Positions 11,090 through 37,560 of a DNA stretch of 39,860 nt are shown in pieces. Under the pieces are notes generated by a model that was not told where the DNA came from, made no database searches, and saw nothing but the letters and a program-made list of their open reading frames with translations. This DNA is from an uncultured Candidatus Saccharibacteria bacterium (GTDB lineage Bacteria > Patescibacteriota > Minisyncoccia > Phycocordibacterales > JAACPR01), in NCBI GenBank assembly GCA_964401885.1, contig CAYOAC010000001.1, positions 1-39,860 on the forward strand. Direction: 5' to 3'. Made by a program: the position numbers and the translations under genes. Each line of letters starts with the position of its first letter. Within the stretch, counting starts at the first letter, position 1.

Positions 11090-11665
11090 TTAGAAACCTA
11101 ATGTGGGTGCAAGATTGTTTTCTGGAATTATTTCCCATTTTGAAGTATCAAGGTTTATTTTTTCTTTTTCACCATTTTTTTCATATAAAAGATATCCATT
11201 TTCTTTTGCAAAGTCATAAACTTTCTTGGTTACAACAACGTCTTGTTTACAATATGAGACAACTTCATCAATTTTGCCTTGTCTCCACCAGATAATAGAT
11301 TGGAGACCGTCGGCTGATTTGGATTCTCCGAGTGTTGAAGATGCAATTTCATCAAGTTTGATCCTTCTCCCTAGGACCTGTCTAATTTCTTTTAATAAAT
11401 CAAGACTCTTTATTTGTGTTAAATCACCAGCATAATATTTATCTAATAGGGGAATATCGAAATGATCACCATTAAAACTCACGAGCATGTCGGCCCTTTC
11501 TATTAGTGGCCACAATTTGCCAAGGTCTTCTTTAAAATAAGAAGTCATTTCATCGGTCTCACTGTCGTGTACACATACTACTGCAAGATCAAGATCTGCT
11601 GGATTAGGTGAACCGACTTCATCAAATGTATTTGTTGTTTCAATATCGAATGTAAGTATTTTCAT
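11090..11665 (-). CDS. DEDD-family 3'-5' exonuclease (PolB-exonuclease-like, ~190 aa)
   Basis: Exo I FDIETTN, Exo II FNGDHFDIPLL, Exo III YCKQDV. Confidence 0.75.
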   Translation of the reverse strand: MKILTFDIETTNTFDEVGSPNPADLDLAVVCVHDSETDEMTSYFKEDLGKLWPLIERADMLVSFNGDHFDIPLLDKYYAGDLTQIKSLDLLKEIRQVLGRRIKLDEIASSTLGESKSADGLQSIIWWRQGKIDEVVSYCKQDVVVTKKVYDFAKENGYLLYEKNGEKEKINLDTSKWEIIPENNLAPTLGF

Positions 11666-11759
11666 AGATGTCTATTGTATCTTATGAATTAGTTTTTACA
11701 AATTTATACATGTTTAAAAGTAAAAGCATAAAATATTTTTTTAGGTATATAATAATCTT

Positions 11760-11993
11760 ATGATTTCTACAACTTTGATATCAATAATTGAACCGCTGTT
11801 GCTGGTTTTATTTTTGGCTTTTATAGTTATATTTGTATATTTTGGAATCACCTTAGTTCATCATTGGAATTATTATTCTTTTAATACTCAAATAAAAAGA
11901 ATAATGAAAGGATTGTATTTTTTTGTTACAACCATGATTCTTTTGGTTCTGTTATTTTTTATTGGATTATACATATTAGGCTATGGCATTTAA
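11760..11993 (+). CDS. Small hydrophobic membrane protein (hypothetical)
   Basis: 77-aa ORF with two predicted TM helices. Overlaps the next ORF by 11 nt (operon-like). Confidence 0.4.
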   Translation: MISTTLISIIEPLLLVLFLAFIVIFVYFGITLVHHWNYYSFNTQIKRIMKGLYFFVTTMILLVLLFFIGLYILGYGI

Positions 11994-12501
11994 ATTAGAA
12001 TCAAACGAACATATTATTCTTGTAGTGCGGAGACATTGGTTTAAACCTGTTTTAAAAAGCTTACTTTTATTTTTTTCTTTAATTTTTCCTATAATTATTT
12101 CTTCTATTGTTTTTTCTTTACCTAAATATACTGATCAAATGGGTAACACAAGTGTATTATCGATCATATTTTTAATTACTTGGTTGTTTATAATTTGGAA
12201 TATTATTTTTGTTGTGTGGACTAATCATTTCTTAGATGTTTTAGTTGTCACAAATTTAAATATTATTGATATAGATCAAATCGGTTTGTGGCACAGAGAA
12301 GTTTCAACGTTACCGATTCAAAGGGTTCAGGATATATCCACAAAAACAGAAGGTCTAATACCTTCCATTCTTAATTATGGACAATTAGAAATTCAAAGTG
12401 CGGGAAGTCTTACAAATTTTATTGTTAATGGTGTTCAACAACCAGATGCTGTTAGACAAAAAATAAATGAACAAATAATTAAAACTAGTGTGCATTTCTG
12501 A
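11983..12501 (+). CDS. Membrane protein with a YdbS/YdbT-like bacterial PH domain (hypothetical)
   Basis: Begins E.HIIL..RRHW, followed by two TM helices and a soluble C-terminal domain, the typical bPH_2 architecture. Assigned from memory of that family. Confidence 0.55.
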   Translation: MAFKLESNEHIILVVRRHWFKPVLKSLLLFFSLIFPIIISSIVFSLPKYTDQMGNTSVLSIIFLITWLFIIWNIIFVVWTNHFLDVLVVTNLNIIDIDQIGLWHREVSTLPIQRVQDISTKTEGLIPSILNYGQLEIQSAGSLTNFIVNGVQQPDAVRQKINEQIIKTSVHF

Positions 12502-13225
12502 TTGGGGCGTTTTTGATTACTTCTAATGCTTCTTCTATAGAATCTGTAATCAAAAAGAGTTTTAAGTCTTTCTCATCGATTTTTCCTTGTTTTAATAATA
12601 ATTCTTTTATAAAAGAATTTAGAGGATTCCAAAAATAAGAACCAAATAAAATAATTGGAACATTTTCAATTTTTTTTGTTTGAACAAGAGTTAATATTTC
12701 AAAAAGTTCATCCATTGTTCCAAAACCACCAGGAAAATAAACATAAGCCTCTGCTGCATATGTTAAAGAAACTTTTCTTGTGAAAAAATATTGAAAATCA
12801 ATAGTTTTATTCAGATAGGGATTAGTTACTTGTTCTTTTGGAAGTTTAATTGTTAATCCGAAAGAATTCCCACCTACCTCAAATGCGCCTTTATTGGCTG
12901 CTTCCATTATTCCAGGACCTCCACCTGTCACTATTGCAAAACCAAGTTTTGCAATCTCTTTGGCTAGATTGTAGGCATTCAAATAATCTTTCTCTGTAGA
13001 AAGTGTTCTGGCAGAACCAAAAAAAGTCACTGTTTTGGGAGAGTCTTTAATTAATTCAAAACCTGTCAAAATTTCTTTACTGATAGTGCTAACTCTTTTT
13101 TTGATTTGTGCTTCAATTTCTGGTAATGTCAATGGTTGAGATACTGTCTGTTTGTGAGGTCTCTCTAATTCTTTCTTTTTCCTAAAAAATATCATAATAA
13201 AGTTATTATAATCTAGTTTTAACAA
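12485..13225 (-). CDS. LOG-family protein (cytokinin riboside 5'-monophosphate phosphoribohydrolase-like / TIGR00730 Rossmann protein)
   Basis: VTFFGSAR...GFAIVTGGGPGIMEAANKGA...PGGFGTMDELFE. The real start may be the internal Met near 13195. Confidence 0.85.
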   Translation of the reverse strand: MLKLDYNNFIMIFFRKKKELERPHKQTVSQPLTLPEIEAQIKKRVSTISKEILTGFELIKDSPKTVTFFGSARTLSTEKDYLNAYNLAKEIAKLGFAIVTGGGPGIMEAANKGAFEVGGNSFGLTIKLPKEQVTNPYLNKTIDFQYFFTRKVSLTYAAEAYVYFPGGFGTMDELFEILTLVQTKKIENVPIILFGSYFWNPLNSFIKELLLKQGKIDEKDLKLFLITDSIEEALEVIKNAPIRNAH

Positions 13226-25690: not shown

Positions 25691-25756
25691 TTCACATTTT
25701 GATAAAAAAGTCTATTTAATTTTTACCTATATTTAATTTGGAATATTTAAAAACAC

Positions 25757-25784
25757 TTGACAAATATTTTATATCATGTATACT
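25757..25784 (+). promoter_or_regulatory. Sigma-70-like promoter
   Basis: TTGACA, a 16-nt spacer, then TATACT. It faces the GC-rich non-coding island downstream. Confidence 0.45.
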
Positions 25785-25790
25785 ATTGCA

Positions 25791-26446
25791 AGATAAGTTT
25801 TTCACATGATTTCTGATTTTTGTTAGTAAGGTGGATATGTGAATCTTTTTAAAAGGATTTAGATACCCACCTTACTGCACAAATGCATAGGGAACAGATG
25901 GGATTTGATTAATGGATATGAGTTCGCCGCCTCACACGCTCCGAGCCGGCTGCTTCGCCGCCTCAGACACTCCCGAGCCGGCTGCTTCGCTGCCCCACTT
26001 CAGGGTCGGCCTCTCACAGCAAAACTCCCAAAAATCAAATAATATAATGAACACAAGCGCAGTGGAACCATCGCCGGCTTCACTTCGCGACAACCTGGCC
26101 TCGTAGAAAGGAGGAATTACTTAATACCCGTTAGAGAAGTGCCATAACAGGACTCAACTCTAAAAGGGCTAGTTTGACCAAATACACCCTGCACGTCAGT
26201 CGTTCCAATCGCACCCACCGCCAAATTAAAATTCCCTTCACCTCTATCATTTAGAAAGGTAATAAGCACCTAGAACCCTCTAGAGAAGTGCCATAGCACT
26301 CAAACTCGAAAAGGGCTGGTCGTGGCGTAAAAGTCACAAATACTACACAAAAATCAAAATCAGAACGTACTTTCGGACCTCCGGAGTCTCTCGCAACTAG
26401 CTTACCCAGCTAACTTGCCACGAGATTCCGGGGGTCTTCTTTTTTA
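25791..26446 (+). ncRNA. Candidate large structured non-coding RNA (GC-rich island with internal repeats)
   Basis: About 650 nt with G+C much higher than the flanks and no credible ORF. It contains a tandem ~33-nt duplication (..ccgcctca[c/g]ac[g/a]ctcc(c)gagccggctgcttcg..) and two ~75-nt dispersed copies (tagaaagg...tagagaagtgccata[a/g]c...aaaagggct[a/g]gt). It ends in a T-run after ggacctccggag...ctccgggggtc. Confidence 0.3.
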
Positions 26447-26500: not shown

Positions 26501-26539
26501 GATTTCACTTGATTAAATCAAGACCAATTTAAGAAATTG

Positions 26540-26614
26540 GGCCCGTAGCTCATCTGGTAGAGCACCTCACTTGCACTGAGGGGGTGGCAGGTTCGAGTCC
26601 TGTCGGGTCCACCA
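26540..26614 (+). tRNA. tRNA-Ala (anticodon UGC)
   Basis: Cloverleaf with acceptor GGGCCCG/CGGGTCC carrying G3:U70, anticodon loop CTTGCAC, T-loop GGTTCGAGTCC, and an encoded CCA. Confidence 0.95.
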
Positions 26615-26687
26615 TTGACGAAAACCCATTTTCGTTTTAATATAATCAAGAATCTCAAAGTACCTGACGTTTGTTGGGAATTTCACT

Positions 26688-27581
26688 TTGAATCAAATAG
26701 TACTTAACAAAAAGATTGAAATGAAAAGAACCAAAAAAGTATTTAATTTTTACACTGAATCTATAAATCTTATACCGTTTCATGTTATAATTGCTTTTAT
26801 CTGTGCAGGGATTAGTTTTATAGTCTGTGATCCATGTCATAAACCTATTACATTTAGTGTTTTATTGTATTCTATTCTAACTGGTTTTATCCCTATGTAT
26901 TTGTGGTTGTCACCATTTTTAGTTGCTTTGTTAATAGATGTTTTGGAAATTTTGACAAAGTGGATATCTGGAATTTCCCAGAAAATAGTGAAGCATACAA
27001 AATCAAAAACTACAAAAACAAAATGGTTTTCAGCAAATGGAATGGATCGGAATTTCTCAAACTTACTAGAAGGCACATTCGATCCGAAAGATTACTGTTT
27101 CTTTTTGGATGGTCAAAATCCAGAATTTACTGATTGTCTTATTCGATTAGCAACAGACAGGTTTGTCACACATCTTGTCGGTAGGGAATTGCGTGATTTG
27201 GATAATGATAAAAATGAAGATTTTTATACCGAAAGCTGGAAAACTTTATCCACTAAAACGGTAGGAGATGAGATTTTTATTTTTCTCTCAATAAGGGCAC
27301 GTGAACGAAAGGGTATCAAGGATTCTTTTAATAGCGTATTCTTTTTTGTACAATTGAAGGTGTCAGATGACAAAGAATCAATAGTATTCTCCGGTTTATC
27401 TTTTAGACACAGGAGAGACCTAGAAGAAATGAAAGTTGAGTTTGAAAGATATGTTTCAGCTCAGTGTGGCGATAGTTCTTTTTCTCCATTAAGTTCAGAT
27501 GTTCTTGCAGAATTAAAGGCTTTGTCGAAACCAAGAGTGGATAGTACTCCTGTAAAAAGCGCAATAATTGTTCCTGTCTAG
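26688..27581 (+). CDS. Hypothetical membrane protein (two N-terminal TM helices plus a cytoplasmic domain)
   Basis: 297-aa ORF directly downstream of the tRNA. An alternative start is MKRTKK at 26721. No recognised homolog. Confidence 0.55.
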   Translation: MNQIVLNKKIEMKRTKKVFNFYTESINLIPFHVIIAFICAGISFIVCDPCHKPITFSVLLYSILTGFIPMYLWLSPFLVALLIDVLEILTKWISGISQKIVKHTKSKTTKTKWFSANGMDRNFSNLLEGTFDPKDYCFFLDGQNPEFTDCLIRLATDRFVTHLVGRELRDLDNDKNEDFYTESWKTLSTKTVGDEIFIFLSIRARERKGIKDSFNSVFFFVQLKVSDDKESIVFSGLSFRHRRDLEEMKVEFERYVSAQCGDSSFSPLSSDVLAELKALSKPRVDSTPVKSAIIVPV

Positions 27582-27674
27582 AATATATGAAACAATAGAG
27601 GAACCAAAAGGGCTGAGATACACATTCAATTCGTGGTCTTGGTCCTTTTTTAATTCAAAATATTTTTTAATATC

Positions 27675-27729
27675 TTTAACTCACCAACCACCTGGTTCAA
27701 CAAAATCACATCCAATTCCACTATTGACA
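27675..27729 (+). repeat. Intergenic repeat copy a (ends in TTGACA)
   Basis: ctttaactcaccaaccacctggttcaacaaaatcacatccaattccactattgaca. Confidence 0.8.
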
Positions 27730-27751
27730 AAAACTATTAAATATATATAAT
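27724..27751 (+). promoter_or_regulatory. Sigma-70-like promoter formed by the 3' end of repeat a
   Basis: TTGACA (27724-27729), a 16-nt spacer, then TATAAT (27746-27751). Confidence 0.5.
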
Positions 27752-27758
27752 ATTCTAC

Positions 27759-27896
27759 ATGAAGTCTAACTTCAAAAACGTGAGTTCCAAATAGGATCTG
27801 GCCGTCGGCCACTGCACAGGCTTACGTAGACAGAAATGTCTTTGCGTGCAGTAAACGATTCAAACCTCCGCTGGTTTTTCTGGCGGAGGTTTTTTA
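27759..27896 (+). ncRNA. Candidate small RNA (~135 nt) with its own promoter and intrinsic terminator
   Basis: GC-rich, non-coding, with several local hairpins (gaagtctaacttc; ggccgtcggcc; ctgcac...gtgcag enclosing gacagaaatgtc). It ends in the terminator cctccgctggtttttctggcggaggtttttt. Confidence 0.45.
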
Positions 27897-27905
27897 TAAA
27901 ATATT

Positions 27906-27958
27906 CTTTAACTCACCAACCACCCAGTTCAACAAAACCATATCCAAGTCCACTATTG
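27906..27958 (+). repeat. Intergenic repeat copy b
   Basis: ctttaactcaccaaccacccagttcaacaaaaccatatccaagtccactattg. Shares 27 identical nt with copy c. Confidence 0.8.
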
Positions 27959-28030
27959 TTTTTACCTTTATTTATTAATGTGTATTTTTTATACTTTAGT
28001 ATGAATTTGAATCATTGGTTTTTAAGTGTT
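27951..28030 (+). promoter_or_regulatory. Conserved upstream block 1 with the palindrome ATACTTTAGTAT (27991-28002)
   Basis: About 75 nt, roughly 85% identical to 36256-36335. The palindrome overlaps a -10-like TATACT. Lies upstream of the E1-like operon. Confidence 0.5.
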
Positions 28031-28127
28031 CATAAGCTATTGGGATGTTGCGAAAACATTGACATTATTGATTATGCTTGTATTGTAACAACGAAATGCT
28101 ATTTGAAAATTCAAACCAAAACTACAA

Positions 28128-29213
28128 ATGAAATACCAAATAAATCCTTCTGCCACTCTGTTGGTAAAAGAGAAGGGTAATATGATTGTTGTTAGATTTT
28201 TACTGGACGCCACACGCAATCTCCATGCTTTCGAAATGTCACCGATTGGTGAACAAATATTAACAAGGATGTATGAAGTGGTATCTGAAGAGAATCTACT
28301 TACTGAATTTGATCTTGGAGGTGAAGATTTGGAGCAATTCCTTGCTCCACTAATTACTTCTGGATTGGTTCTTTCTGAAGAAAATTTCACTCATCTTAAT
28401 GCTCTCGGAGAGCGTAATATTAGGACTATGGAATTTTTCCGATCGTTTGCTTCTGTTGAAAGACCAACTATCGAACTGGTTCAGAAGCTTATGAATTCAA
28501 CCATTCTAGTTCTTGGACTTGGAGGTATCGGTACCTGGGTTGTAGAGATGTTTGCTCGGATGGGAATAAAAAAACTAATACTTGTCGATCCTGACAGTGT
28601 AGAAGAATCAAATATTCCTCGCCAAGCGATGTTCACTCGACTTAGTGTTGGCCTTTTAAAAACGGAGGCAGCGAAAGCGTTCTGTGAGGCCATATCTGAA
28701 AATATTGAAGTACAAATATTTGCCGAGCAGATATCAGATTCAGAATCCTTGTTATCAAAACTTCAGGGAGTTGATCTTGTCATAAACTGTGCTGATAAAC
28801 CAGATGTTGATTTCACTAATTCACTCGTAACATATGCTTGTTTCAAAGCAGGTGTGCCTCACATCCTTTGTGGAGGATATGATGGACATCTTAGTTCACT
28901 TGGACAGACTGTGATTCCTGGAGAAACTTCTTGCTGGTTTTGTTTTGCCGATAGCGGTATTTACGAAAATCTTCTTGATGGCTTCAGGATTGTAGACAGG
29001 ACATCGAATCAACAGATCGGTGGAACAATTTGTCCTATTGGTGTTTATGTTGCTAGCTTCCAGGTTCAAGAAGCTGTAAGAATTCTTACAGGTTGTTCTG
29101 AACCAGTCATGATTAACCGCAAGGCAGAGATAGATTTTACAAATCTGTCTCAAAACTTTGTAAACGTACCCAAACTCAAAACATGTAAACTTTGTGGAAA
29201 TGAAAACCATTAA
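28128..29213 (+). CDS. E1-like (ThiF/MoeB/MccB-family) adenylyltransferase with an extra N-terminal ~100-aa domain and a C-terminal Cys4 zinc motif
   Basis: Nucleotide-binding VLGLGGIGTWVVEMFARMGIKKLILVDPDSVEESNIPRQ. Cys pairs CWFC and CKLC. The N-terminal domain resembles the N-terminus of the downstream enzyme. Confidence 0.85.
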   Translation: MKYQINPSATLLVKEKGNMIVVRFLLDATRNLHAFEMSPIGEQILTRMYEVVSEENLLTEFDLGGEDLEQFLAPLITSGLVLSEENFTHLNALGERNIRTMEFFRSFASVERPTIELVQKLMNSTILVLGLGGIGTWVVEMFARMGIKKLILVDPDSVEESNIPRQAMFTRLSVGLLKTEAAKAFCEAISENIEVQIFAEQISDSESLLSKLQGVDLVINCADKPDVDFTNSLVTYACFKAGVPHILCGGYDGHLSSLGQTVIPGETSCWFCFADSGIYENLLDGFRIVDRTSNQQIGGTICPIGVYVASFQVQEAVRILTGCSEPVMINRKAEIDFTNLSQNFVNVPKLKTCKLCGNENH

Positions 29214-30432
29214 AATTAACCCTCATCTGGAACTTATGGATCCAGTTGCAGGACAAGTGAGAAATACTAAATCAGGAGAGGTATTCAGCCTTTCCTTCGA
29301 AGCACTGTCTGTTATTTCATTATTTGATGAACCTAAAAAAGTCGGTGACGACTTTGAGGGTTTGGAAAATATTGTTATGTCAGATGATAATGAAGCGGTG
29401 AAAGCATTCATTGAAAGTCTTTTGGAACAGGAAGTTCTGATTTTCGAGGAAGAATTCGATCAAACTCCCAAAAGCGATTGGGATCATAAAAGATTATTAG
29501 ATTTGGCTCTGGTTGAAAAACCATTCCTGTCTTGTTTGAGTGTTCCTGTCGCAGGTTTGGATTCAGAATATCCGTATGAGTTTGCAATCGTTGGAATGCC
29601 TTTCGATCTTGGTTCTACAGGATTTCCTGGATCAAGATTTGGTCCGACCAGACTGCGGGAACTTTCTGCTTCTGGCACAGATTATCGAGGACGATTCAGT
29701 GATTTGTCATGTGCTGGATGGTTATCAGAACATGGTGTGAAACTGTGTGAAGGGAAAAAGATTGTAGATATTGGAGATGTGATTCATCAAGTAGGGGAGC
29801 CATTCCATGACTTCTTCAAAAGGGTGAAGAATGTTAATAATATTCTGCGAGAAAAAGGTGTCATGCCAATCTTGATTGGAGGAGACCATTCTTGTACATA
29901 TGCATCGGTCTGTTCTGTGATAAAATATTCACAAGGCAAATCTTTGCATCTTGTTGTGTTCGATGCACACACAGACCTTGCGGACTACAATGCTTCTATT
30001 TCGCATAATCATGGCAACTTTGTTACCAGACTACTTTCTGAAGGGGTAGTAAAAAAGGTGACACATGTTGGTCTTCGTGGGATGCTTGGAAAAGCAGAAA
30101 CAAGGGACGGTTACGTCGCTGTTTATGCAGATCAGTGTACTTCTGTGGAAAAAGTAATGGAATACATTCCATTCGACCCTTTGGAGACTGTCTATGTCTC
30201 TTTTGATGTTGACGTGATAGATCCAATCTTTGCACCAGGAACAGGCACGCCTGTTTCTTTGGGACTAACACCTCAAATAGTTTTGTCAGTGATTAGAAAA
30301 ATCTTCGCATCTCAGAATGTAGAAGGTTTCGATATCGTTGAGTATAACCCTATGAGGGATATCAATGATATGACGGGTCATCTACTAATCAGTATGCTTC
30401 CGAAGTTTCTGGACGCTCTGCGTTCAAAGTAA
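29194..30432 (+). CDS. Arginase/agmatinase/formiminoglutamase-fold (ureohydrolase) metalloenzyme with an extra N-terminal ~110-aa domain
   Basis: Binuclear-Mn motifs GGDHS, DAHTD and SFDVDVIDP. Overlaps the E1-like gene by 20 nt (operon). Confidence 0.85.
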   Translation: MEMKTIKINPHLELMDPVAGQVRNTKSGEVFSLSFEALSVISLFDEPKKVGDDFEGLENIVMSDDNEAVKAFIESLLEQEVLIFEEEFDQTPKSDWDHKRLLDLALVEKPFLSCLSVPVAGLDSEYPYEFAIVGMPFDLGSTGFPGSRFGPTRLRELSASGTDYRGRFSDLSCAGWLSEHGVKLCEGKKIVDIGDVIHQVGEPFHDFFKRVKNVNNILREKGVMPILIGGDHSCTYASVCSVIKYSQGKSLHLVVFDAHTDLADYNASISHNHGNFVTRLLSEGVVKKVTHVGLRGMLGKAETRDGYVAVYADQCTSVEKVMEYIPFDPLETVYVSFDVDVIDPIFAPGTGTPVSLGLTPQIVLSVIRKIFASQNVEGFDIVEYNPMRDINDMTGHLLISMLPKFLDALRSK

Positions 30433-30654
30433 GAAGATTGACTGATTTAGAAAGTGGCGTATAGTGTTCACAGGTTCGAATTCTCGGGCCGTTCAAACAT
30501 CCAACTACGGAAAGGAGAATAATAAGCACATGAAACAGATTCAAGCCAGTAAGCTCACAATCGTTCCTCTCGGAGTGGTCGTCGATGCCGTCTGTATGCG
30601 CGGCCTTCGTCGCCGTCGTGCATGACATTCCATCATCTTTACTGATGGTTCCCA

Positions 30655-30694
30655 CACCCTGCCAAGTCCTCGACTCGGCAGGGTGTTTCTTTTA
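30655..30694 (+). terminator. Rho-independent terminator after the arginase-fold gene
   Basis: caccctgcc...ggcagggtg stem followed by tttcttttat. Confidence 0.7.
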
Positions 30695-30704
30695 TAATAC
30701 AAGC

Positions 30705-31241
30705 ATGACTTCACCAACAATCAAAACTCAAAATTATATAATACGACCTTTCAAAAAGGAGGATGCTTTATTATGGCAAAGTTGGGACATAGATCCTGAA
30801 ATCCAATCTCATATGCCAGAACCTGAGAATGAGTCTCAAGATATCTCACAACAATATGAATATATTGAAGAATGCGAAAAAGACGAAGAAGGATATTATT
30901 GGTCTGTTGAAACAAATGACGGAGTAACTATTGGTACAGTATCTTTATTTGAAATAAATTCTCACCATAAAAATGCCAATGTTGGGATTGTAATTGGTGA
31001 TAAAAATTATTGGGGTAAAGGTGTTGCAACAGAAGTACTTCAAACTTTGAGCTCTTATGCTTTTGAATATTTAGATGTTGTTCGAATTAGCGCAGAAGTT
31101 GAAGCTAATAATATTTCAATGCAAAAAGTATTTGAAAAGGTTGGATTCGTACAAGATGGAGTATTTAAAAAAGCACGAGTAAAAGAAGGAAAAAGAATAG
31201 ACGTGCTACATTTTGGGATAGTGAAAAATATTTTGAATTAA
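30705..31241 (+). CDS. GNAT-family N-acetyltransferase (RimJ/RimL-like)
   Basis: IIRPFKKEDA...VGIVIGDKNYWGKGVATE...ISAEVEANNISMQKVFEKVGF. Start placed at the Met after the terminator; the ORF finder gave 30585. Confidence 0.85.
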   Translation: MTSPTIKTQNYIIRPFKKEDALLWQSWDIDPEIQSHMPEPENESQDISQQYEYIEECEKDEEGYYWSVETNDGVTIGTVSLFEINSHHKNANVGIVIGDKNYWGKGVATEVLQTLSSYAFEYLDVVRISAEVEANNISMQKVFEKVGFVQDGVFKKARVKEGKRIDVLHFGIVKNILN

Positions 31242-31555
31242 AGAACGTCCTGTAAAAAAGTTTATATTTATTCTTCAAAAAATAATATTTCTCATGAACT
31301 TAAAACCGGAGGTGATGGCTATTGTGATGTTTTAAGTATAGAAGAAGATATTTGGCTTAGAGACTTAAGGCACAGAGAATCAGATAATTAAAACAGCCCT
31401 CCTTTCGGAGGACTGCTCTTGGATGTGGTACCCTTAAAGTTTATGGAAACCCTAAGATATCTTTATTATATGAAGAACCTTGTTTTTGTCAATATTTTCA
31501 GTAAGTTGACATTTTAAATCAATATAATCTTTAAAACCTTCAATTCCTGCACTAC

Positions 31556-31587
31556 TCGGTTCAACAAAACCATATCCAAGTCCACAA
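31556..31587 (+). repeat. Intergenic repeat copy c
   Basis: ctcggttcaacaaaaccatatccaagtccac. Confidence 0.75.
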
Positions 31588-31599
31588 AAATAAAATCTG

Positions 31600-31748
31600 G
31601 AAGCGTGAGCTTTCAGATTTTTAATTTTTGTAGGGCCCGACAGGACGAGAAAGACGGAGGCCTAGGGTCCCTGCGTCCGAGTGACAACGAGGACCTGGGA
31701 TGGCCGAGTCGGGGTCGCGGAAATTTTCTCTAGAAAATTATCTGTGAC
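31600..31748 (+). ncRNA. GC-rich non-coding island, a candidate structured RNA
   Basis: Starts near GGGCCCG (31633-31639), which is identical to the tRNA-Ala 5' acceptor strand, and runs into the duplicated tRNA 3' end. Contains the hairpin aattttctctagaaaatt. No ORF. Confidence 0.3.
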
Positions 31749-31767
31749 CGAGTCCTGTCGGGTCCAC
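31749..31767 (+). repeat. Direct repeat of the tRNA-Ala 3' end (attR-like): CGAGTCCTGTCGGGTCCAC
   Basis: 19 of 19 nt identical to 26594-26612 inside the tRNA-Ala T-arm and acceptor. Followed by ctactgTTTGACA, as in the repeat family. Confidence 0.8.
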
Positions 31768-31786
31768 TACTGTTTGACAAAACACA

Positions 31787-32023
31787 ATGGTTATTATTGA
31801 GGTTCATTTATCCAAAGAACCCAGAGAAATAGATCCAGTTTATCTCAAAAAGATCAAGGATTTTAAGTCAAAAAATCCAGATTATTCATCAGGATATGGA
31901 TATCATTTCAAGAAAGATGTTATTACTGTCCGAAAATTTCCAAATAACGGCCAACCAGGTGAATATGGAACACTAGTGCCTGAATATCACGGTAATGGTT
32001 ACGCATACGATTTTATGAAGTAG
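31787..32023 (+). CDS. Hypothetical small protein (78 aa) with a Gly/Tyr-rich C-terminus
   Basis: MVIIEVHLSKEPREIDPVYLKK...SSGYGYHFKK...GEYGTLVPEYHGNGYAYDFMK. Followed by a good terminator. Coding status unproven. Confidence 0.35.
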   Translation: MVIIEVHLSKEPREIDPVYLKKIKDFKSKNPDYSSGYGYHFKKDVITVRKFPNNGQPGEYGTLVPEYHGNGYAYDFMK

Positions 32024-32053
32024 CGAATAGAGAAGGTTTTCTATCTACAAAAC

Positions 32054-32088
32054 CCCGAAGGCATTAATTTGTCTTCGGGTTTTTATTT
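32054..32088 (+). terminator. Rho-independent terminator
   Basis: ccccgaaggcattaatttgtcttcgggtttttatttt. Confidence 0.8.
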
Positions 32089-32120
32089 TGTCTGAATTTG
32101 TTTTTATACTTTTAATATCT

Positions 32121-32187
32121 CATTCAACTCCACCAACTCTTTCACAACCAGGTTCAACAAAACCACCCCCCCAAGTCCACCATTGAT
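32121..32187 (+). repeat. Intergenic repeat copy d
   Basis: ...caccaactctttcacaaccaggttcaacaaaaccacccccccaagtccaccattgatt. Confidence 0.7.
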
Positions 32188-32189
32188 TA

Positions 32190-32712
32190 GAAAACGAATG
32201 GGTGAGGTTATACGGGTGCTTGACTTTCAAAACAATTTCATTAGAATACCTCATTGGACTCTGTTGATCAATATCCCACCGAGGAAGGAGTGGTGACGAT
32301 CGTTGAATGATAAATGAATATATATGCAAGAAAATGTCTTCGTTCCCTTCCAAGGGGATGCCTCAAGACGCTCTGCTATGTCCAAATATTACGGATTAAC
32401 CCCACTAACGTGGGCAAGCGTCCGTTGCCGGATAAGTACTCGCCGATGTATCTGATATTGGATTGCATAAAAGTTTAGAAGTTCAAGGCTTATCAATGAA
32501 CACAACGATGGTAAAGTGTGTTTCAGAGGATGGGTTGGTCTATCCCAGTTTGAGAACACTGGTGCGCCAAATGACAGTGAAAATGAATCTCAAAGGAGAG
32601 GAATCTCTAGAGAGATAACAAAAATCTTGTCCCTACAGATGACTGTAAATACACACTTTTGCTCGGCCGAGCAAGACATGTGGACTGGTCATCTTAGGGA
32701 TTTTTTTTATTA
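32190..32712 (+). ncRNA. Candidate structured non-coding region (moderately GC-rich, ~520 nt)
   Basis: Only short, compositionally odd ORFs on either strand. Local hairpins: ccccactaacgtgggg-like, ggcaagcgtccgttgcc, and the palindrome gctcggccgagc. Ends with T8. Boundaries are uncertain. Confidence 0.25.
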
Positions 32713-32812
32713 AAGAACACTTTATTCATTGACGAAACTAATATTAAGTGTTATTTTTATTTTTGAATCGGCGAACAACAAGTAGCCGAAAAACAACAGA
32801 AAATATTTGAAA

Positions 32813-33064
32813 ATGAGAGAAATCAAATTCGATGTATCTGACAATCTTCTAGGTTTTGTCTGTCGTGAACTTTTGGAAATTGGTACCAACCCATGTATTT
32901 CAATTGTTCGCACAGAGGACAGGATCGGTAAAGGAAAAATGATGCGTCTTGGATTCGAGGTGCCTTCTAGAGAAACATTTGTATCAGTTACAAGATGGCT
33001 TAGGACCCTTGGGGATGCAGAACTCGTATTCGATGTCGAAACGAAGGAAATACCTGTCACATAA
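32813..33064 (+). CDS. Hypothetical small protein (~84 aa)
   Basis: MREIKFDVSDNLLGFVCRELLEIGTNPCISIVRTEDRIGKGKMMRLGFEVPSRETFVSVTRWLRTLGDAELVFDVETKEIPVT. Protein-like composition with its own downstream hairpin. The overlapping minus-strand ORF is Ser-rich low-complexity and was not called. Confidence 0.4.
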   Translation: MREIKFDVSDNLLGFVCRELLEIGTNPCISIVRTEDRIGKGKMMRLGFEVPSRETFVSVTRWLRTLGDAELVFDVETKEIPVT

Positions 33065-33103
33065 AAGCAACCGTGCTATATTTGGCTTGGAAAATTAGTT
33101 TAA

Positions 33104-33140
33104 CAACCGCTTGACCCTTTAGGGAGGCGGTTTTCTATTT
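33104..33140 (+). terminator. Hairpin terminator
   Basis: aaccgcttgaccctttagggaggcggttttctatttt. Confidence 0.6.
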
Positions 33141-33177
33141 TCAAAATCTCTTTCAAAACTTTTAATTCAGAGACTAT

Positions 33178-33210
33178 CTGATTCAACAAAATAATATCCA
33201 ATTCCACTTC
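33178..33210 (+). repeat. Intergenic repeat copy e (degenerate)
   Basis: ctgattcaacaaaataatatccaattccacttc. Confidence 0.6.
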
Positions 33211-33466
33211 TTTAGAAAAGTGTTTTAATTTTAATCACTCTTGGTTTATTCTGAGCCTGTAGAAGGGCAAGTCATCTAGGATTTATGTGGGAAAATTGGG
33301 TCAGTCATGATTTTTTCAACCAGTATAACTGCAGGTGTGCGTTTTTTAGTTTAGATTCAGATTAGAATTGAAGGAAACATTGACTTTTTTAAATAAAATG
33401 ATATTGTCCGTGAAGGCTTGTTATGTTTGACTCAGATAAGTCAAAATAGCGAGGAAAACAAGAACA

Positions 33467-36142
33467 TTGAAACAACTAGTTAGCAATACTATGCCACAAG
33501 ATGAATTCCCACCAAGAGGTGGAAGACCACAGGATCGAGATTTAACCCTCGCTCCAAATGAATATGCATTTGTAATGGACACTACCAAAGGTGTTGTCCA
33601 AACATGTGTTGGCCCGCTCGTACATACCATTTCCGGTAATGACCAACCTGTGCGTTGGAACCCGGGAACTAGTAAGTTCGATCGTTGCGCTCAAGACGCC
33701 GCAATTTGTCTTTTTGTCTACGTACAAGAAGGTGATTACGTTCGTCTTACTAATCCTGCCAAGAGTGACACCCAGTTTCATCCTCCGGTCGGTGGTAAGC
33801 AAAATGCGGTAGACCTAAAACATGGTCGTACTGTTAATCTGCGTGGTCCACTTTCTTTTGCCCTTTGGCCCGGCCAATCGGCACAAGTTATCGAGGGTCA
33901 CCGTTTGAGGTCCAACGAATTCTTGCTTCTTACCGTTACAAACGAAAATGAGGCGAGGAACAATTGGACTAGTGCGGTAATGGAACCGCAACAATCAGTC
34001 GGTTCAGTCGGTTCGAGAGCCGAAGGTGATGAAGGTGAAACAGCCGCTACAATCGAAAAGGCCAATATTGTTACTCCCAAGAGTACCAACATTGATCCTT
34101 CTAAGCTGACTGTTGGTCAGCGTCTTATTATTTGCGGTACGGAATGCAGTTTCTATATGCCGCCAACGGGTATTGAAGTTATTCCGGTTGAAAACGGACG
34201 ATATGTCCGTGAAGCAGTGACCCTCGAACGTTTGGACTATTGCATTCTTCTTGATGAAAACGGTATTCGCCGTCTTGTCACTGGACCGAATGTTGTGTTT
34301 CCTGAGCCGACCGAGACGTTTATCACTGATGCTCAAGGATCGAATATTTTCACAGCTCTTGAGCTCAATGAGCTTCAGGGTGTGTATGTGAAGGTTACCG
34401 CCAATTATACGGATGAAAAAGGTGTTAAGCATAGAGCTGGTGATGAGTTATTTATCACTGGTGCCCAATGTCCAGTTTATGTTCCTCGTGAGGAACATCG
34501 TATTATCCTGTATGGTGACTCCAGTAAGGTGAAGCACAATTCTGTCGCAATTACTGCTGGTGAAGCTCGCTATGTGATGGATCGTATGACTGGTGATGTG
34601 GAAACTGTTAAGGGACCAAAAATGTTCCTTGCAGATCCGCGCAAACAATTGCATATCCGTCGGCCGTTGCCAGAAAGATTGGTTAAGTTGCTTTATCCTA
34701 GAAATAGTGAAGCAATTGAAATCAATGAATGGCTTCGCAAAGAAGCTGCTAAATCTGGATCTGGCGATATAGTCCTTGATGAAAGTGCGCAATTGTATCG
34801 CGCTTCAACTACAGGTGATCGCAGTTTGTCCCGTCGTCGTGCACCTGGAGCAGGTCAAATTATTGCTGAATCGTTTGATCGTGGTGGCCAATATACACCA
34901 CCACGCACTATTACCCTCGAAACGAAATACGAAGGTGCAGTGCAATTTAGCGTGTGGCCTGGTTATGCGGTGCTTATCGTCGACAAGACTGGTAAGAGCC
35001 GTGTTGTTCAGGGTCCAAGTCCAGTGATTTTGGATTACGGCGAAGTCCCACAAGTCTTCTCATTGTCTACCGGTACTCCGAAGACGGATGAAAAGATTGT
35101 CGAGGATGTCTTCCTCAAGACGCATGGAAATTGCGTTTCGGATGAAGTTATCGTCGAGACTGAAGATTTGGTCAATATCCGTATTCGTTTGTCCTATCGC
35201 GTTAACTTCGAAGGTGATGATCCCAAGAAGTGGTTCGAACTCGACAACTACGTTCAATTTATGTGTAAGCACCTGCGCTCAATACTCAGGAATGCTGCAC
35301 ATGGATACGGTGTTGAGGCGTTCTATAGCGATGCGGCTAACATCGTTCGCGATACAGTTCTTGGAGGCACAACTCCCAAGAAGAGCGAAGGTGAAGGTCT
35401 CAAAGCCGAACGTACTGGTCGCGCATTTGCCGAAAATGGAATGCGTGTCTACGACGTTGAAGTCCTTGAGGTTGATATTGATGATAATGAAATCGCGAAC
35501 CAAATGCTCGCATTTCGGCATTCGACTGTTCAAGGTGCGCTCCGGATTCGCGCTGCAAGGCAAAAACTGGAAGAAACCAGAGCTATTGAGGATACCAAGC
35601 GCGAAAGTTTGGCTGAAACGATGAAGACTGAAGCTGCTCAAGCTGAAGCAGAAATGCAAAAGCTGGAAGCTCAAGTCCAGATTGCAAATGCCAGGCAAGT
35701 TTCTGAATTTGGTCTTCAAAGAGAAAGGCAGGAACAAGAACTGTCGATGTCAGGACGCAAGTTGCAGGCTGATAAGGCTAATCAGGCTGAGTTGGACGTT
35801 ATTGAAGCGGCTAAGCGTGATCGTGAGCGGGCATCTGGTGAACTCAAGCATGAAATGGCTAAAAAGGCGGAAGAACTTCGTCTTACTGGTCTTAATGCTG
35901 AAGCTGATGCCTTGGTCAAGAAGACTCAGGCGGTCTCGCCGGACTTGATTGCAGCACTTCAGGGTGTTGCTGCGAGTGGTCTTGCTGATAGTATGGCGAA
36001 GAACTTCAGTGTTCTTGCTATCCTTCAAGACAAGGGTGTTGCTGATGTAGCCAAGAGTGTGTTTGCAAACACGCCTCTTGCTGATTCTATCAATCAAGTG
36101 CTTCGACATCTCTCTACCCCTAAAGGTGGTGATGTAAGCTGA
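33467..36142 (+). CDS. Major vault protein (MVP) homolog: N-terminal tandem vault repeats, shoulder domain, C-terminal coiled-coil cap-helix
   Basis: Recurring ~55-aa units with the GxE(L/W)(F/L)(I/V).G....Y(V/M)P pattern: GQRLIICGTECSFYMPPTGIEV and GDELFITGAQCPVYVPREEHRI. The shoulder-like block GAVQFSVWPGYAVLIVDKTGKSRVVQGPSPVILDYGEVPQVFSLSTGTPK...VIVETEDLVNIRIRLSYRVNFE aligns with eukaryotic MVP ...[39 protein letters not shown]...[22 protein letters not shown]. The last ~200 aa are strongly heptad/coiled-coil. 891 aa, which is MVP-sized. Markedly higher G+C than the surrounding genome. Confidence 0.85.
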   Translation: MKQLVSNTMPQDEFPPRGGRPQDRDLTLAPNEYAFVMDTTKGVVQTCVGPLVHTISGNDQPVRWNPGTSKFDRCAQDAAICLFVYVQEGDYVRLTNPAKSDTQFHPPVGGKQNAVDLKHGRTVNLRGPLSFALWPGQSAQVIEGHRLRSNEFLLLTVTNENEARNNWTSAVMEPQQSVGSVGSRAEGDEGETAATIEKANIVTPKSTNIDPSKLTVGQRLIICGTECSFYMPPTGIEVIPVENGRYVREAVTLERLDYCILLDENGIRRLVTGPNVVFPEPTETFITDAQGSNIFTALELNELQGVYVKVTANYTDEKGVKHRAGDELFITGAQCPVYVPREEHRIILYGDSSKVKHNSVAITAGEARYVMDRMTGDVETVKGPKMFLADPRKQLHIRRPLPERLVKLLYPRNSEAIEINEWLRKEAAKSGSGDIVLDESAQLYRASTTGDRSLSRRRAPGAGQIIAESFDRGGQYTPPRTITLETKYEGAVQFSVWPGYAVLIVDKTGKSRVVQGPSPVILDYGEVPQVFSLSTGTPKTDEKIVEDVFLKTHGNCVSDEVIVETEDLVNIRIRLSYRVNFEGDDPKKWFELDNYVQFMCKHLRSILRNAAHGYGVEAFYSDAANIVRDTVLGGTTPKKSEGEGLKAERTGRAFAENGMRVYDVEVLEVDIDDNEIANQMLAFRHSTVQGALRIRAARQKLEETRAIEDTKRESLAETMKTEAAQAEAEMQKLEAQVQIANARQVSEFGLQRERQEQELSMSGRKLQADKANQAELDVIEAAKRDRERASGELKHEMAKKAEELRLTGLNAEADALVKKTQAVSPDLIAALQGVAASGLADSMAKNFSVLAILQDKGVADVAKSVFANTPLADSINQVLRHLSTPKGGDVS

Positions 36143-36157
36143 TATTGATTGTTACTA

Positions 36158-36188
36158 GTCGTGGTGCGCAAGCGCACCACGGCTTTTT
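36158..36188 (+). terminator. Strong hairpin terminator after the MVP gene
   Basis: gtcgtggtgcgcaagcgcaccacggcttttt. Confidence 0.9.
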
Positions 36189-36250
36189 AATTTAATATTA
36201 TAAACCCCCAGAAGATCAAGTAGAATAATTCTAAACCCCACACAAGAAGT

Positions 36251-36262
36251 CAGTCCACTACT
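36251..36262 (+). repeat. Intergenic repeat copy g (3' part only: cagtccactactg)
   Basis: Matches the ...agtccactattg end of the repeat family. Leads into conserved block 2. Confidence 0.5.
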
Positions 36263-36335
36263 GTTTTTATCTTTATTTTTTAATGTTTAATTTTCATACT
36301 TTAGTATAGGTTTGAACCATTATGAATATATGAAC
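36256..36335 (+). promoter_or_regulatory. Conserved upstream block 2 with the palindrome ATACTTTAGTAT (36296-36307)
   Basis: About 85% identical to 27951-28030. Upstream of the 245-aa membrane protein gene. Confidence 0.5.
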
Positions 36336-36370
36336 GTTGCGAACGTGTTGCAAAGTGATATTATTTTTGT

Positions 36371-37108
36371 ATGAATAAAAAAATAAATATTACTTTCGCA
36401 ATTTTCGGATTGTTATTTGGGGTAATTGCATTTTTTCTGTGGAGTGGACAAATAGAACTTGTAAAAACTGGGGTACACTCTTCTGGAGCGATTGTTGGTA
36501 TATCAAATCATAAATCCGATAAAGGGACTATGATGTATGCACCTATTGTTGAATATGAATTTAATAATACAAAAAATACATTTGTTTCTAAATTATCGAC
36601 TAGTAATCCAGGATATAAAATTGGAGAAAGTGTAAAAATATTGATTCCAAAAAATGGAAATCAACCACAAATAAATTCTTTTATAAGTTTATGGTTTGCT
36701 GCTATCGTAACATCTTTTCTAAGTTTAACTTTTTTGATTGCGGGTATTTTATTTTTTATTAGAGATATAAAAGTAAATAAAAACAATGAAATATTAAAAA
36801 GTAGAGGAGTATTAATAAAGGCAACCAACCCTATTGTTATAAATGGTTTTGAAGATAAAATTCAATTTCAGACAACTGGTTTATTATCCTTAGTGTCTAA
36901 TTTCAGAAAAAGAACAAATTTACTAAATAAAATTAAAACTCAGTGGTTAAATCCTGAAGATGGTAAAGTTTATATATTTTATAGTGAATATTTAAATTAT
37001 GATCCAACTCCATATTTAGGTGAAACTGTGGACATTAAAATATTGCCCGAAAACCCCAGTGTGTACAAGTTTGAAAATATTCCACAATCAGCAAAAATTA
37101 CTAATTAA
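36371..37108 (+). CDS. Hypothetical membrane protein (two TM helices separated by a beta-rich domain)
   Basis: 245 aa. An N-terminal TM helix, a ~90-aa soluble segment, a second TM helix, and a C-terminal domain. No recognised homolog. Confidence 0.55.
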   Translation: MNKKINITFAIFGLLFGVIAFFLWSGQIELVKTGVHSSGAIVGISNHKSDKGTMMYAPIVEYEFNNTKNTFVSKLSTSNPGYKIGESVKILIPKNGNQPQINSFISLWFAAIVTSFLSLTFLIAGILFFIRDIKVNKNNEILKSRGVLIKATNPIVINGFEDKIQFQTTGLLSLVSNFRKRTNLLNKIKTQWLNPEDGKVYIFYSEYLNYDPTPYLGETVDIKILPENPSVYKFENIPQSAKITN

Positions 37109-37132
37109 AGTATTTGTAGTATTGTCAATTAT

Positions 37133-37179
37133 TTCACAACCCATTTCAACAAAACCACATTCAAGTCCTACTATTGACA
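37133..37179 (+). repeat. Intergenic repeat copy f (ends in TTGACA)
   Basis: cacaacccatttcaacaaaaccacattcaagtcctactattgaca. Followed 18 nt later by TAATAT. Confidence 0.7.
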
Positions 37180-37202
37180 TAAATAATTTAATATGTTAAT
37201 AT

Positions 37203-37560
37203 ACTTAGGAATGAAATTTCGAATACATTGACCGTCCGAGTTAGCTCGTGCAACGGTCAAACATTATGATGGGGAAGGCTCACGCTGACAACCCACAAAA
37301 ACACCCCTTCCTATATTGCAGCACTTAAATGTGCACTTTAATATATGTAGTCTTAGGTTCCGACAGACGATTCTAAACTCACAATGAGAACACCTTGGCA
37401 TAATGCCATAAAATCCAGATATCGTACTTAGTGAATCAATAGACCCTGACGATCAAAAGATACTTGAGCTGACGAGCGAGAGATACTTAAGACGCAGGAG
37501 AACGCAGAAATTAAAAAGCACTTGTAGGAGGGGTCTTTTTTTATTTTAAAATTTCTTTTG
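37203..37560 (+). ncRNA. Candidate non-coding transcript or long 5' leader downstream of repeat f
   Basis: About 360 nt with no ORF and moderately raised G+C. Contains an 8-bp stem ttgaccgt...acggtcaa and a T7 run near 37536-37542. Confidence 0.2.

Follow-up and report, generated by a model that had tools for sequence, protein, structure and literature searches.

Repeats beside the tRNA-Ala gene of a Saccharibacteria contig are probably attachment-site arms of serially inserted small modules

Tycheposons of Prochlorococcus accumulate in tandem at tRNA genes, where newcomers displace older elements outward (Hackl et al., 10.1101/2020.12.28.424599). They carry their own integrase (of the tyrosine type in 910 of 937, of the large serine type in the remainder) and often replication genes, and the separators between them are partial tRNA copies of about 40 nucleotides (nt) (10.1101/2020.12.28.424599). 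Here we analysed 39,860 nt of contig CAYOAC010000001.1, from an uncultured Candidatus Saccharibacteria bacterium (the whole of this 39.86-kb stretch is referred to as the window), in which a family of intergenic repeats lies 3′ of the tRNA-Ala(TGC) gene. These repeats most likely reflect recombination, as scars or as sites, and not a promoter that the genes share, and we conclude that they probably represent element-derived arms (P arms; around 75 nt plus a GTCCAC core) at the right ends of small modules that were inserted one after another. Bacteria of the candidate phyla radiation (CPR) have very small genomes and few described mobile elements, and their gain of accessory genes is poorly understood. 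In the literature, we did not find this arrangement described in CPR bacteria.

In the window, the family has six full members and a seventh that is partial. They are intergenic without exception, lie on the plus strand between 27.6 and 37.2 kb, and are referred to, in order, as copies a to g. The alignable unit is about 80 nt in length, terminates in ...CTGGTTCAACAAAAYCATATCCAAGTCCAC and has the consensus tttttATTTCAAAATnTCTTTCAAAAnCTTTTAATTCAnnAACTACCTGGTTCAACAAAAYCATATCCAAGTCCAC. The sequence TTCAACAAAA occurs six times, on the plus strand only (27696, 27928, 31560, 32153, 33182 and 37145), against a chance expectation of about 0.9, and none of 100 shuffles contains six or more; the 26-mer core has 4 matches with ≤3 mismatches, where 0 are expected. 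A profile made from the copies returns the same six full copies, and these alone, from the window (E-values of 1e-15 to 3e-12), with zero copies in positions 1–26 kb. Each copy has a terminator or stop codon just 5′ and the next gene or RNA just 3′. A truncated repeat head is also present at 37535–37560, 3′ of the second of two GC-rich non-coding stretches.

The last 6 nt of the unit, GTCCAC, are the final 6 nt of the tRNA-Ala gene, and this core is found at every junction in the window, either as GTCCAC or as the variants TTCCAC and GTCCTAC. An earlier note on this DNA had reported at least seven copies of around 50 bp. The family is real, but its unit is longer than was thought, and the copy placed at 36251 (junction f, 36252–36258) has only AGTCCAC in common with the others, its upstream arm not being a member of the family. 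The block of 70 nt downstream of junction f is nevertheless similar to the block downstream of copy b (86% identical). Two other observations of the same note hold as made: copies b and c have 27 identical nt (27927–27953 and 31559–31585), and the 3′ end of tRNA-Ala, GGGTCCACCATTGACG (26605–26620), resembles GTCCACTATTGACA within the repeat. The repeat itself is not tRNA sequence, however; the 6-nt core alone is common to both.

We compared the window with syntenic loci from related Paceibacterota-type metagenome assemblies (L001, L010, L014, L015, L017, L018, L019, L020 and L023/L024), which were obtained by DNA pattern scans and Ddl-anchored look-ups and have Ddl proteins that are 75–85% identical to that of the window. 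Where a locus spans it, the gene order is uvrC, ddl, tRNA-Ala, a variable region, a small basic open reading frame (ORF) and an ABC-F ATPase gene, and the variable region differs in each genome compared. The profile gives 20 hits in the window and seven further assemblies taken together, every one of them on the strand of the tRNA and within the variable region (with six hits in 5 kb, two of them partial, in L020). About 200 kb of related sequence yielded none beyond the variable region next to tRNA-Ala, and the flanking core genes are likewise free of copies, a distribution that is known from this single type of locus in each assembly and not from whole genomes. The single direction that the earlier note had described extends beyond the window. 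A scan of GTDB genomes with the repeat core identified one true locus (L001) and a chance match inside a membrane-protein gene (L002); the corresponding scan of JGI metagenomes identified two true loci (L010 and L014) and three chance matches in a hydrogenase-protease gene.

Empty and filled versions of the site can be recognized among these genomes. In L001, L018, L020 and L015, the site is empty: tRNA-Ala, GTCCAC, AAAAATAA, a terminator and a structured tRNA-like RNA are contiguous, and the flank after GTCCAC reads A(A/T)AAAATAA, followed by the intrinsic terminator. In the window, the site is filled. The tRNA gene runs at 26607 into GTCCAC followed by CATTGACG, and GTCCAC followed by AAAAATAAAA, with the native terminator and the RNA, is found from 31580 onward, 5 kb downstream of the tRNA and directly after copy c. 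The same anatomy recurs in L014, in which the GTCCAC of the tRNA is followed by AAAATTGACG, two unrelated modules, a repeat, GTCCAC with AATAATAAAA and the terminator, and in L017, in which the tRNA is followed by one module, a repeat, GTCCAC with ATAAAAAA and the terminator. Depending on the genome, 0, 1, 2 or 3 modules lie between the tRNA and the native terminator, and their content is different each time. We regard this terminator as native flank because its hairpin is kept despite sequence change in the window, L001, L014, L018 and L020.

BLASTN alignments between genomes place the breakpoints at the core. Positions 60–395 of L010 match 31252–31585 of the window, stopping exactly at the core, and positions 396–471 of L010 and 11703–11796 of L020 match 32727–32801 and 32728–32823 of the window, respectively, each starting immediately after it; the tRNA of L001 (6700–6774) matches 26539–26612 of the window. 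The insert in the window starts after GTCCAC, at 26612, and leaves tRNA-Ala intact. The encoded CCA of this tRNA depends on the CA that the inserted module provides after GTCCAC; in the empty-site genomes L001, L018, L020 and L015, GTCCAC is followed by AAAA and no CCA is encoded, so their tRNA-Ala relies on a CCA-adding enzyme.

The reciprocal junctions match the pattern B-O-B′ × P-O-P′ → B-O-P′ + P-O-B′, which identifies the repeat as the P arm and GTCCAC as the core. The attachment (att) junction reading is based on these junctions, on the breakpoints at GTCCAC, on the distribution of the copies, which are strictly oriented and confined to one locus, on the displaced native terminator and on the spread in GC content: the core-to-core stretches form seven modules of 232–3632 bp (0.23–3.6 kb) with GC contents of 27% to 45%, compared with 31.5% in the core genome. 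Further support comes from the low identity of the MVP (major vault protein) encoded in one module to its nearest non-self homologue (46%), from a large serine recombinase gene with variant repeats at the same tRNA in L023/L024, and from the precedent of tycheposons. The earlier note had proposed serial att remnants at tRNA-Ala as one of two explanations. Its central idea is supported by the empty and filled sites, the junctions and the breakpoints, with two amendments, as the repeat is the arm of the element and a second target exists. On this model, a circular module would carry P arm-GTCCAC-left end (YAYTGACRAAAAC...) and would recombine, conservatively and site-specifically, with tRNA-...GTCCAC-native flank. 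The products would be tRNA-GTCCAC-module left end (attL) and P arm-GTCCAC-native flank (attR). Later modules would recombine at the tRNA-proximal junction and displace older ones outward, so that hybrids of P arm, GTCCAC and left end would remain between modules. Two targets would be used, namely the tRNA-Ala(TGC) 3′ end and the same terminal sequence in the neighbouring tRNA-like RNA. Each module would supply its own promoter (with TTGACR after the core as the −35 box) as well as a terminator, placed immediately 5′ of the P arm. Read in this way, the features of the window (all on the plus strand) are as follows.

26539–26614 (+), tRNA-Ala(TGC) (ARAGORN, Rfam), putative primary target (attB), core GTCCAC at 26607–26612
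Right of 26607–26612 (+), attL-type junction, CATTGACGAAAAC..., probably element-derived; the empty-site L001, L018, L020 and L015 read otherwise
26613–27721 (+), module 1: promoter-like site at 26615, ORF of 297 amino acids (aa) at 26688–27581 with no Pfam match, terminator
27641–27721 (+), repeat copy a, right end of module 1, core TTCCAC
27722–27953 (+), module 2, 232 bp: 12/12 promoter-like site at 27724–27751, small-RNA candidate with terminator
27871–27953 (+), repeat copy b, right end of module 2
27954–31585 (+), module 3: ThiF-like E1, arginase-family protein, 31-aa ORF, GNAT, remnant of a NYN/LabA-like gene
27954–28016 (+), type-2 left end of module 3, 86% identical to 36259–36321
31504–31585 (+), repeat copy c, right end of module 3
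31586–31767 (+), displaced native tRNA flank: AAAAATAAAA, terminator at 31592–31621, tRNA-Ala-like RNA at 31633–31769
31762–31767 (+), core of the second target; the last 18 nt of the tRNA-like RNA (GAGTCCTGTCGGGTCCAC) copy the tRNA 3′ end
31768–32180 (+), module 4: 78-aa ORF at 31787–32023, terminator at 32054–32079
32099–32180 (+), repeat copy d, right end of module 4
32181–33207 (+), module 5, possibly two fused modules: GC-rich non-coding block at about 32200–32700, then 85-aa ORF and terminator
32725–32757 (+), type-1 left end and promoter within module 5, with no repeat in front
33124–33207 (+), repeat copy e, right end of module 5, core TTCCAC
33208–36258 (+), module 6: major vault protein (MVP) homologue at 33491–36142, terminator at 36157–36184; closed by junction f
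36259–37171 (+), module 7: type-2 left end at 36259–36321, 245-aa membrane protein at 36371–37108
37106–37171 (+), repeat copy g, right end of module 7, core GTCCTAC; promoter-like site at 37174–37202 next

The island extends past the right-hand edge of the window. Across junction g, an independent assembly (L025) is 99.3% identical to the window, and a look-up with the 200-aa protein gave no more than a near-identical contig of 1.6 kb.

The second target is the 3′ end of the tRNA-like RNA (GTCCTGTCGGGTCCAC). This structured RNA, of about 130–190 nt, lies directly 3′ of the tRNA-Ala terminator, and its 3′ end repeats the last 18–20 nt of the tRNA. Copies of the repeat are also found 3′ of it, in the window (modules 4–7) and in L001 (one module). 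Its homologues are located as follows.

L001, 1049–1179 (minus)
L018, 11168–11293
L020, 11203–11334
L015, 11251–11437

In the closing helix, 5′ GGGCCCGACAGGAC pairs with 3′ GTCCTGTCGGGTCC(ACTA), and two hairpins lie inside it. Across five genomes, compensatory changes are seen at twelve of the predicted pairs, and Rfam contains no match for the RNA. As modelled, the closing helix is a mimic of an acceptor stem plus T stem, with a predicted G3:U70 pair in the window copy. An inverted repeat of about 90 nt is made up of the 3′ end of the tRNA, the terminator and the 5′ end of the RNA. At its own 3′ end, the RNA agrees with the tRNA of the same genome at a G/A position of the T loop, and it also does so at CGGG/CAGG in four of five genomes, all but L020; this covariation by genome suggests ongoing exchange between the two targets.

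The earlier note had also described the 3′ ends of the repeats as −35-like TTGACA boxes, with a properly spaced −10 element at two copies, and had offered as its other explanation a module, either a portable promoter or a binding site for a regulator, that unites the accessory genes into one regulon. In this case, the repeat would be an operator or an upstream activating sequence and would move together with a TTGACA promoter. Well-spaced, promoter-like TTGACR sites are present at 27724 (12/12), 37174 (10/12), 26615 and 32729. The first two begin at +3 of copies a and g, and copy 1 of L010 and copy 1 of L020 are each followed by TTGACG-N17-TATTNT and a conserved 5′ untranslated region (UTR). 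At junctions of arm, core and left end, the arm lies at about −40 to −115 of the promoter, where a secondary regulatory role is possible. As the main function of the repeat, however, a promoter module is very unlikely. A promoter-like site directly abuts only two of the seven window copies (27675 with 27724, and 37133 with 37174), all at one locus, and the fixed spacing to −35 and −10 elements at several loci that such a module calls for is not seen. Copies b, c, e and f have no −35 box at the junction, whereas TTGACG-type promoters with a 5′ UTR occur without a preceding repeat at 26615, right after the tRNA, and at 32729. Copy c faces the terminator at 31592–31621, the copy in L014 and copy 1 in L017 likewise face terminators, and copy 2 of L017 is flanked by two minus-strand genes. 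Inter-genome similarity splits between repeat and promoter, rather than following one moving unit. Box and repeat can each be found without the other, and TTGACR belongs to the module that follows, as the promoter at its left end, and not to the repeat; the −35 box of each module comes right after the core, so the repeat seems to ‘end in a TTGACA box’. The statement in the earlier note that each copy stands upstream of a transcription unit is true in so far as a gene or RNA follows, with the qualification that the copies are equally 3′ of a terminator or stop and that copy c leads into a terminator.

A common left end is found on cassettes with unrelated ORFs (window 32725–32815, L010 396–471, and L020 11702–11796 and 14730–14798). 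It reads YATTGACGAA-N15-TGTTATTNT and is followed by a 5′ UTR hairpin, TTTTTGAATCGGYGAACAAYAAGTAGCCGAAAAACA.

The repeats could instead be a scaffold for homologous recombination, with spacers copied along with the modules in local duplications or anchoring recombination after DNA uptake, and with no dedicated recombinase. This would account for the lack of a recombinase encoded in cis; the 80-nt tract, at 80–100% identity, is long enough for RecA-dependent exchange, and both the 27 identical nt of copies b and c and the flanks of b and f (86% over 70 nt) could be products of it. A scaffold does not, however, predict that breakpoints always fall at one 6-nt GTCCAC, that this hexamer coincides with the 3′-terminal 6 nt of the tRNA gene or that the flanks are split exactly and reciprocally, and no similarity between arm and tRNA body is available as an anchor for the first insertion. 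We therefore consider this explanation improbable, although slightly less so than the promoter module. Least credible of all is a miniature inverted-repeat transposable element (MITE), a repeat like the repetitive extragenic palindromic (REP) sequences, a structured repeat like the attC sites of integrons or a fragment of a minus-strand gene (G[LI]GYGFVE on the reverse strand). The copies are indeed intergenic, multiple and similar in length, but all 20 have one orientation at one type of locus, and no terminal inverted repeats were found in the repeat. Folded as single-stranded DNA, four copies on both strands (eight folds) do no better than shuffles (z of −0.02 to +0.93), and at the gathering threshold as well as at E up to 5, the only Rfam match is the tRNA, with the repeat unmatched. 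The same coding-strand 24-mer does occur in phage portal (NIVGLGYSFVE), membrane-protein and hydrogenase-protease genes; in the window, copies a, b and e reach a stop in the reverse frame within 8–15 codons, and the frame is not kept in copy d. We rejected the gene-fragment candidate, as the matches are single-copy, lie in long unrelated ORFs and contain the searched pattern only.

Several results count against reading the repeats as att arms. The repeat and the tRNA have no more than the 6-nt core in common, a short identity block by the standards of tyrosine integrases. Junction f has an arm from outside the family and the left end at 32725 has no arm at all, so the simple model needs extra deletions or a second arm family. 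All of the sequences are metagenome assemblies, in which 80-nt repeats can yield chimeric joins between strains. No free or circular module was found in IMG/VR, GenBank phages or PLSDB plasmids, and in IMG/VR the repeat core matched portal-gene and other coding sequences only. No Phage_integrase, Resolvase, Recombinase or transposase domains were detected in the ORFs of the window, including those of the seven modules, and the precomputed Pfam record shows no recombinase in the variable regions of L015, L017, L018, L019 and L020. The one recombinase gene at such a locus, in L023/L024, is split into two ORFs, and the repeat of its element is divergent. Searches of IMG/VR with the tRNA-Ala 3′ end and with the core plus left end returned phage tRNA genes, none of which fits the repeat profile.

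With no recombinase in the modules, a trans-acting enzyme is needed, unless all modules are fossils; we assume an enzyme acting in trans. The gene in L023/L024 encodes a large serine recombinase (Resolvase and Recombinase domains) and lies directly against the tRNA 3′ end.

L023, 9091–10646 (minus), large serine recombinase, split into a 135-aa Resolvase ORF and a 364-aa Recombinase ORF
L024 (an assembly independent of L023), 11205–12760 (minus), large serine recombinase, split in the same way

The frame of this gene extends into the 3′ end of tRNA-Ala. Variant repeats, ...GGTTCGCAA...GTCAC followed by TACTATTGAC and ...GTCCAC followed by TACTGTTGAC, are found 6.6 and 8.9 kb downstream, and the island also holds an AcrVA2-like gene and an AAA_21 ATPase gene. 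This recombinase is the only enzyme lead; a tyrosine integrase is equally possible. The tRNA (GGTTCAA-N10-GTCCAC) and the repeat (GGTTCAA-N15-GTCCAC) differ by 5 bp in register, a difference that may fit the site geometry of serine integrases and is suggestive only. The attP and attB sites of serine integrases reportedly differ in the register of the zinc-ribbon domain. Serine integrases normally do not reuse attL, so that with them a tandem array is less easily explained, and tandem reuse of a tRNA-proximal junction is more typical of tyrosine integrases.

The first 26.5 kb of the window are bacterial and AT-rich (31.5% GC), with the core genes rpoC, dnaG, rpoD, a UvrD-like helicase gene, tgt, uvrB, uvrA, uvrC and ddl, and tRNA-Ala(TGC), intact according to ARAGORN and Rfam, is the only tRNA gene of the window. 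Between ddl and this gene, the block at 25700–26440 is non-coding, has a GC content above that of the core genome and contains internal direct repeats. The block is absent in L001 and L018, in which ddl nearly adjoins the tRNA, and it may be a further insertion or a set of RNA genes.

The cargo of the modules is varied. The MVP homologue of module 6 (883 aa, with Shoulder and Vault-repeat domains) is encoded at 45% GC in a one-gene module. Identity to the nearest non-self homologue is only 46%, and members of the family occur widely among diverse bacteria; the homologues are too distant (≤46%) for a comparison that would bear on the portability of this cassette. In module 3 (28128–31241), the arginase-family protein has a long N-terminal extension and the 31-aa ORF (30531–30626) ends in RRRRA; the gene set could be a small peptide-modification set. 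The remnant at 31243–31500 is the 3′ end of a NYN/LabA-like gene, around 84% identical to L010 1–310, with a bidirectional terminator next to it. A 12/12 promoter-like site on the minus strand (31492–31465) is aimed back into this terminator and may give rise to a short antisense RNA. The two GC-rich non-coding stretches (32200–32700 and 37205–37545) each have their own promoter-like site and terminator and are candidate structured RNAs carried as cassette cargo.

The locus is a single, precisely bounded hot spot beside tRNA-Ala, with different cargo in each relative examined; here, the cargo includes an MVP homologue, a set of E1-like, arginase and GNAT genes and several non-coding RNA candidates. 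A bolder interpretation, which we put forward tentatively and regard as possible rather than probable, is that of a gene-capture platform in Paceibacterota (CPR bacteria) that is mobilized in trans, on which self-expressing cassettes of 0.2–3.6 kb that lack a recombinase would be captured and shuffled through an attP of about 150 bp at tRNA-Ala and at the decoy end of the RNA. This attP would consist of the 80-nt arm, GTCCAC and the promoter-bearing left end, and the recombinase may be of the large serine type. If true, this would be a cassette system with functional parallels to integrons, one that uses a tRNA as its target and att arms that lack structure, and a dedicated hypervariable locus for tiny genomes; the defined sites (around 80 nt, GTCCAC and around 15–70 nt) could be of use as substrates for recombination. 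Should the modules be no more than decayed remnants, the locus would represent ordinary island accretion.

Compared with described systems, the array resembles tycheposons in its insertion at a tRNA 3′ end, its outward accretion, the same-orientation repeats between units and the cargo of niche genes, and in forming a hypervariable island in a streamlined genome. It differs from them in that the modules of the window are 0.23–3.6 kb in length, without an integrase or replication gene, in that the separator is an element arm of around 75 nt with GTCCAC alone in common with the tRNA, and in having a tRNA-like RNA as second target. Like integron arrays and clusters of attC sites lacking integron-integrases (CALINs), it consists of small, mostly one-gene cassettes with end sites in one orientation and no internal recombinase, and as in integron arrays its cassette content varies among close relatives. 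Unlike integrons, it has no IntI, attI or Pc beside it and is headed by ddl and then tRNA-Ala; the window repeats lack attC-type hairpins, the modules have their own promoters and terminators, and insertion is at a tRNA 3′ end. The short core and the half-site motifs at different spacing recall the att systems of large serine recombinases (Bxb1, phiC31 and LI), and such a gene abuts the same tRNA in L023/L024, a link that is circumstantial; unlike in those systems, there is no evident dyad symmetry between the site halves. Of the hallmarks of a tRNA-targeted island, the locus has an intact tRNA, relatives with empty sites and direct repeats that bear the crossover (6 nt), but not its own site-specific recombinase. 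We conclude that the array is probably an accretion of the tRNA-targeted island type with an integron-like appearance.

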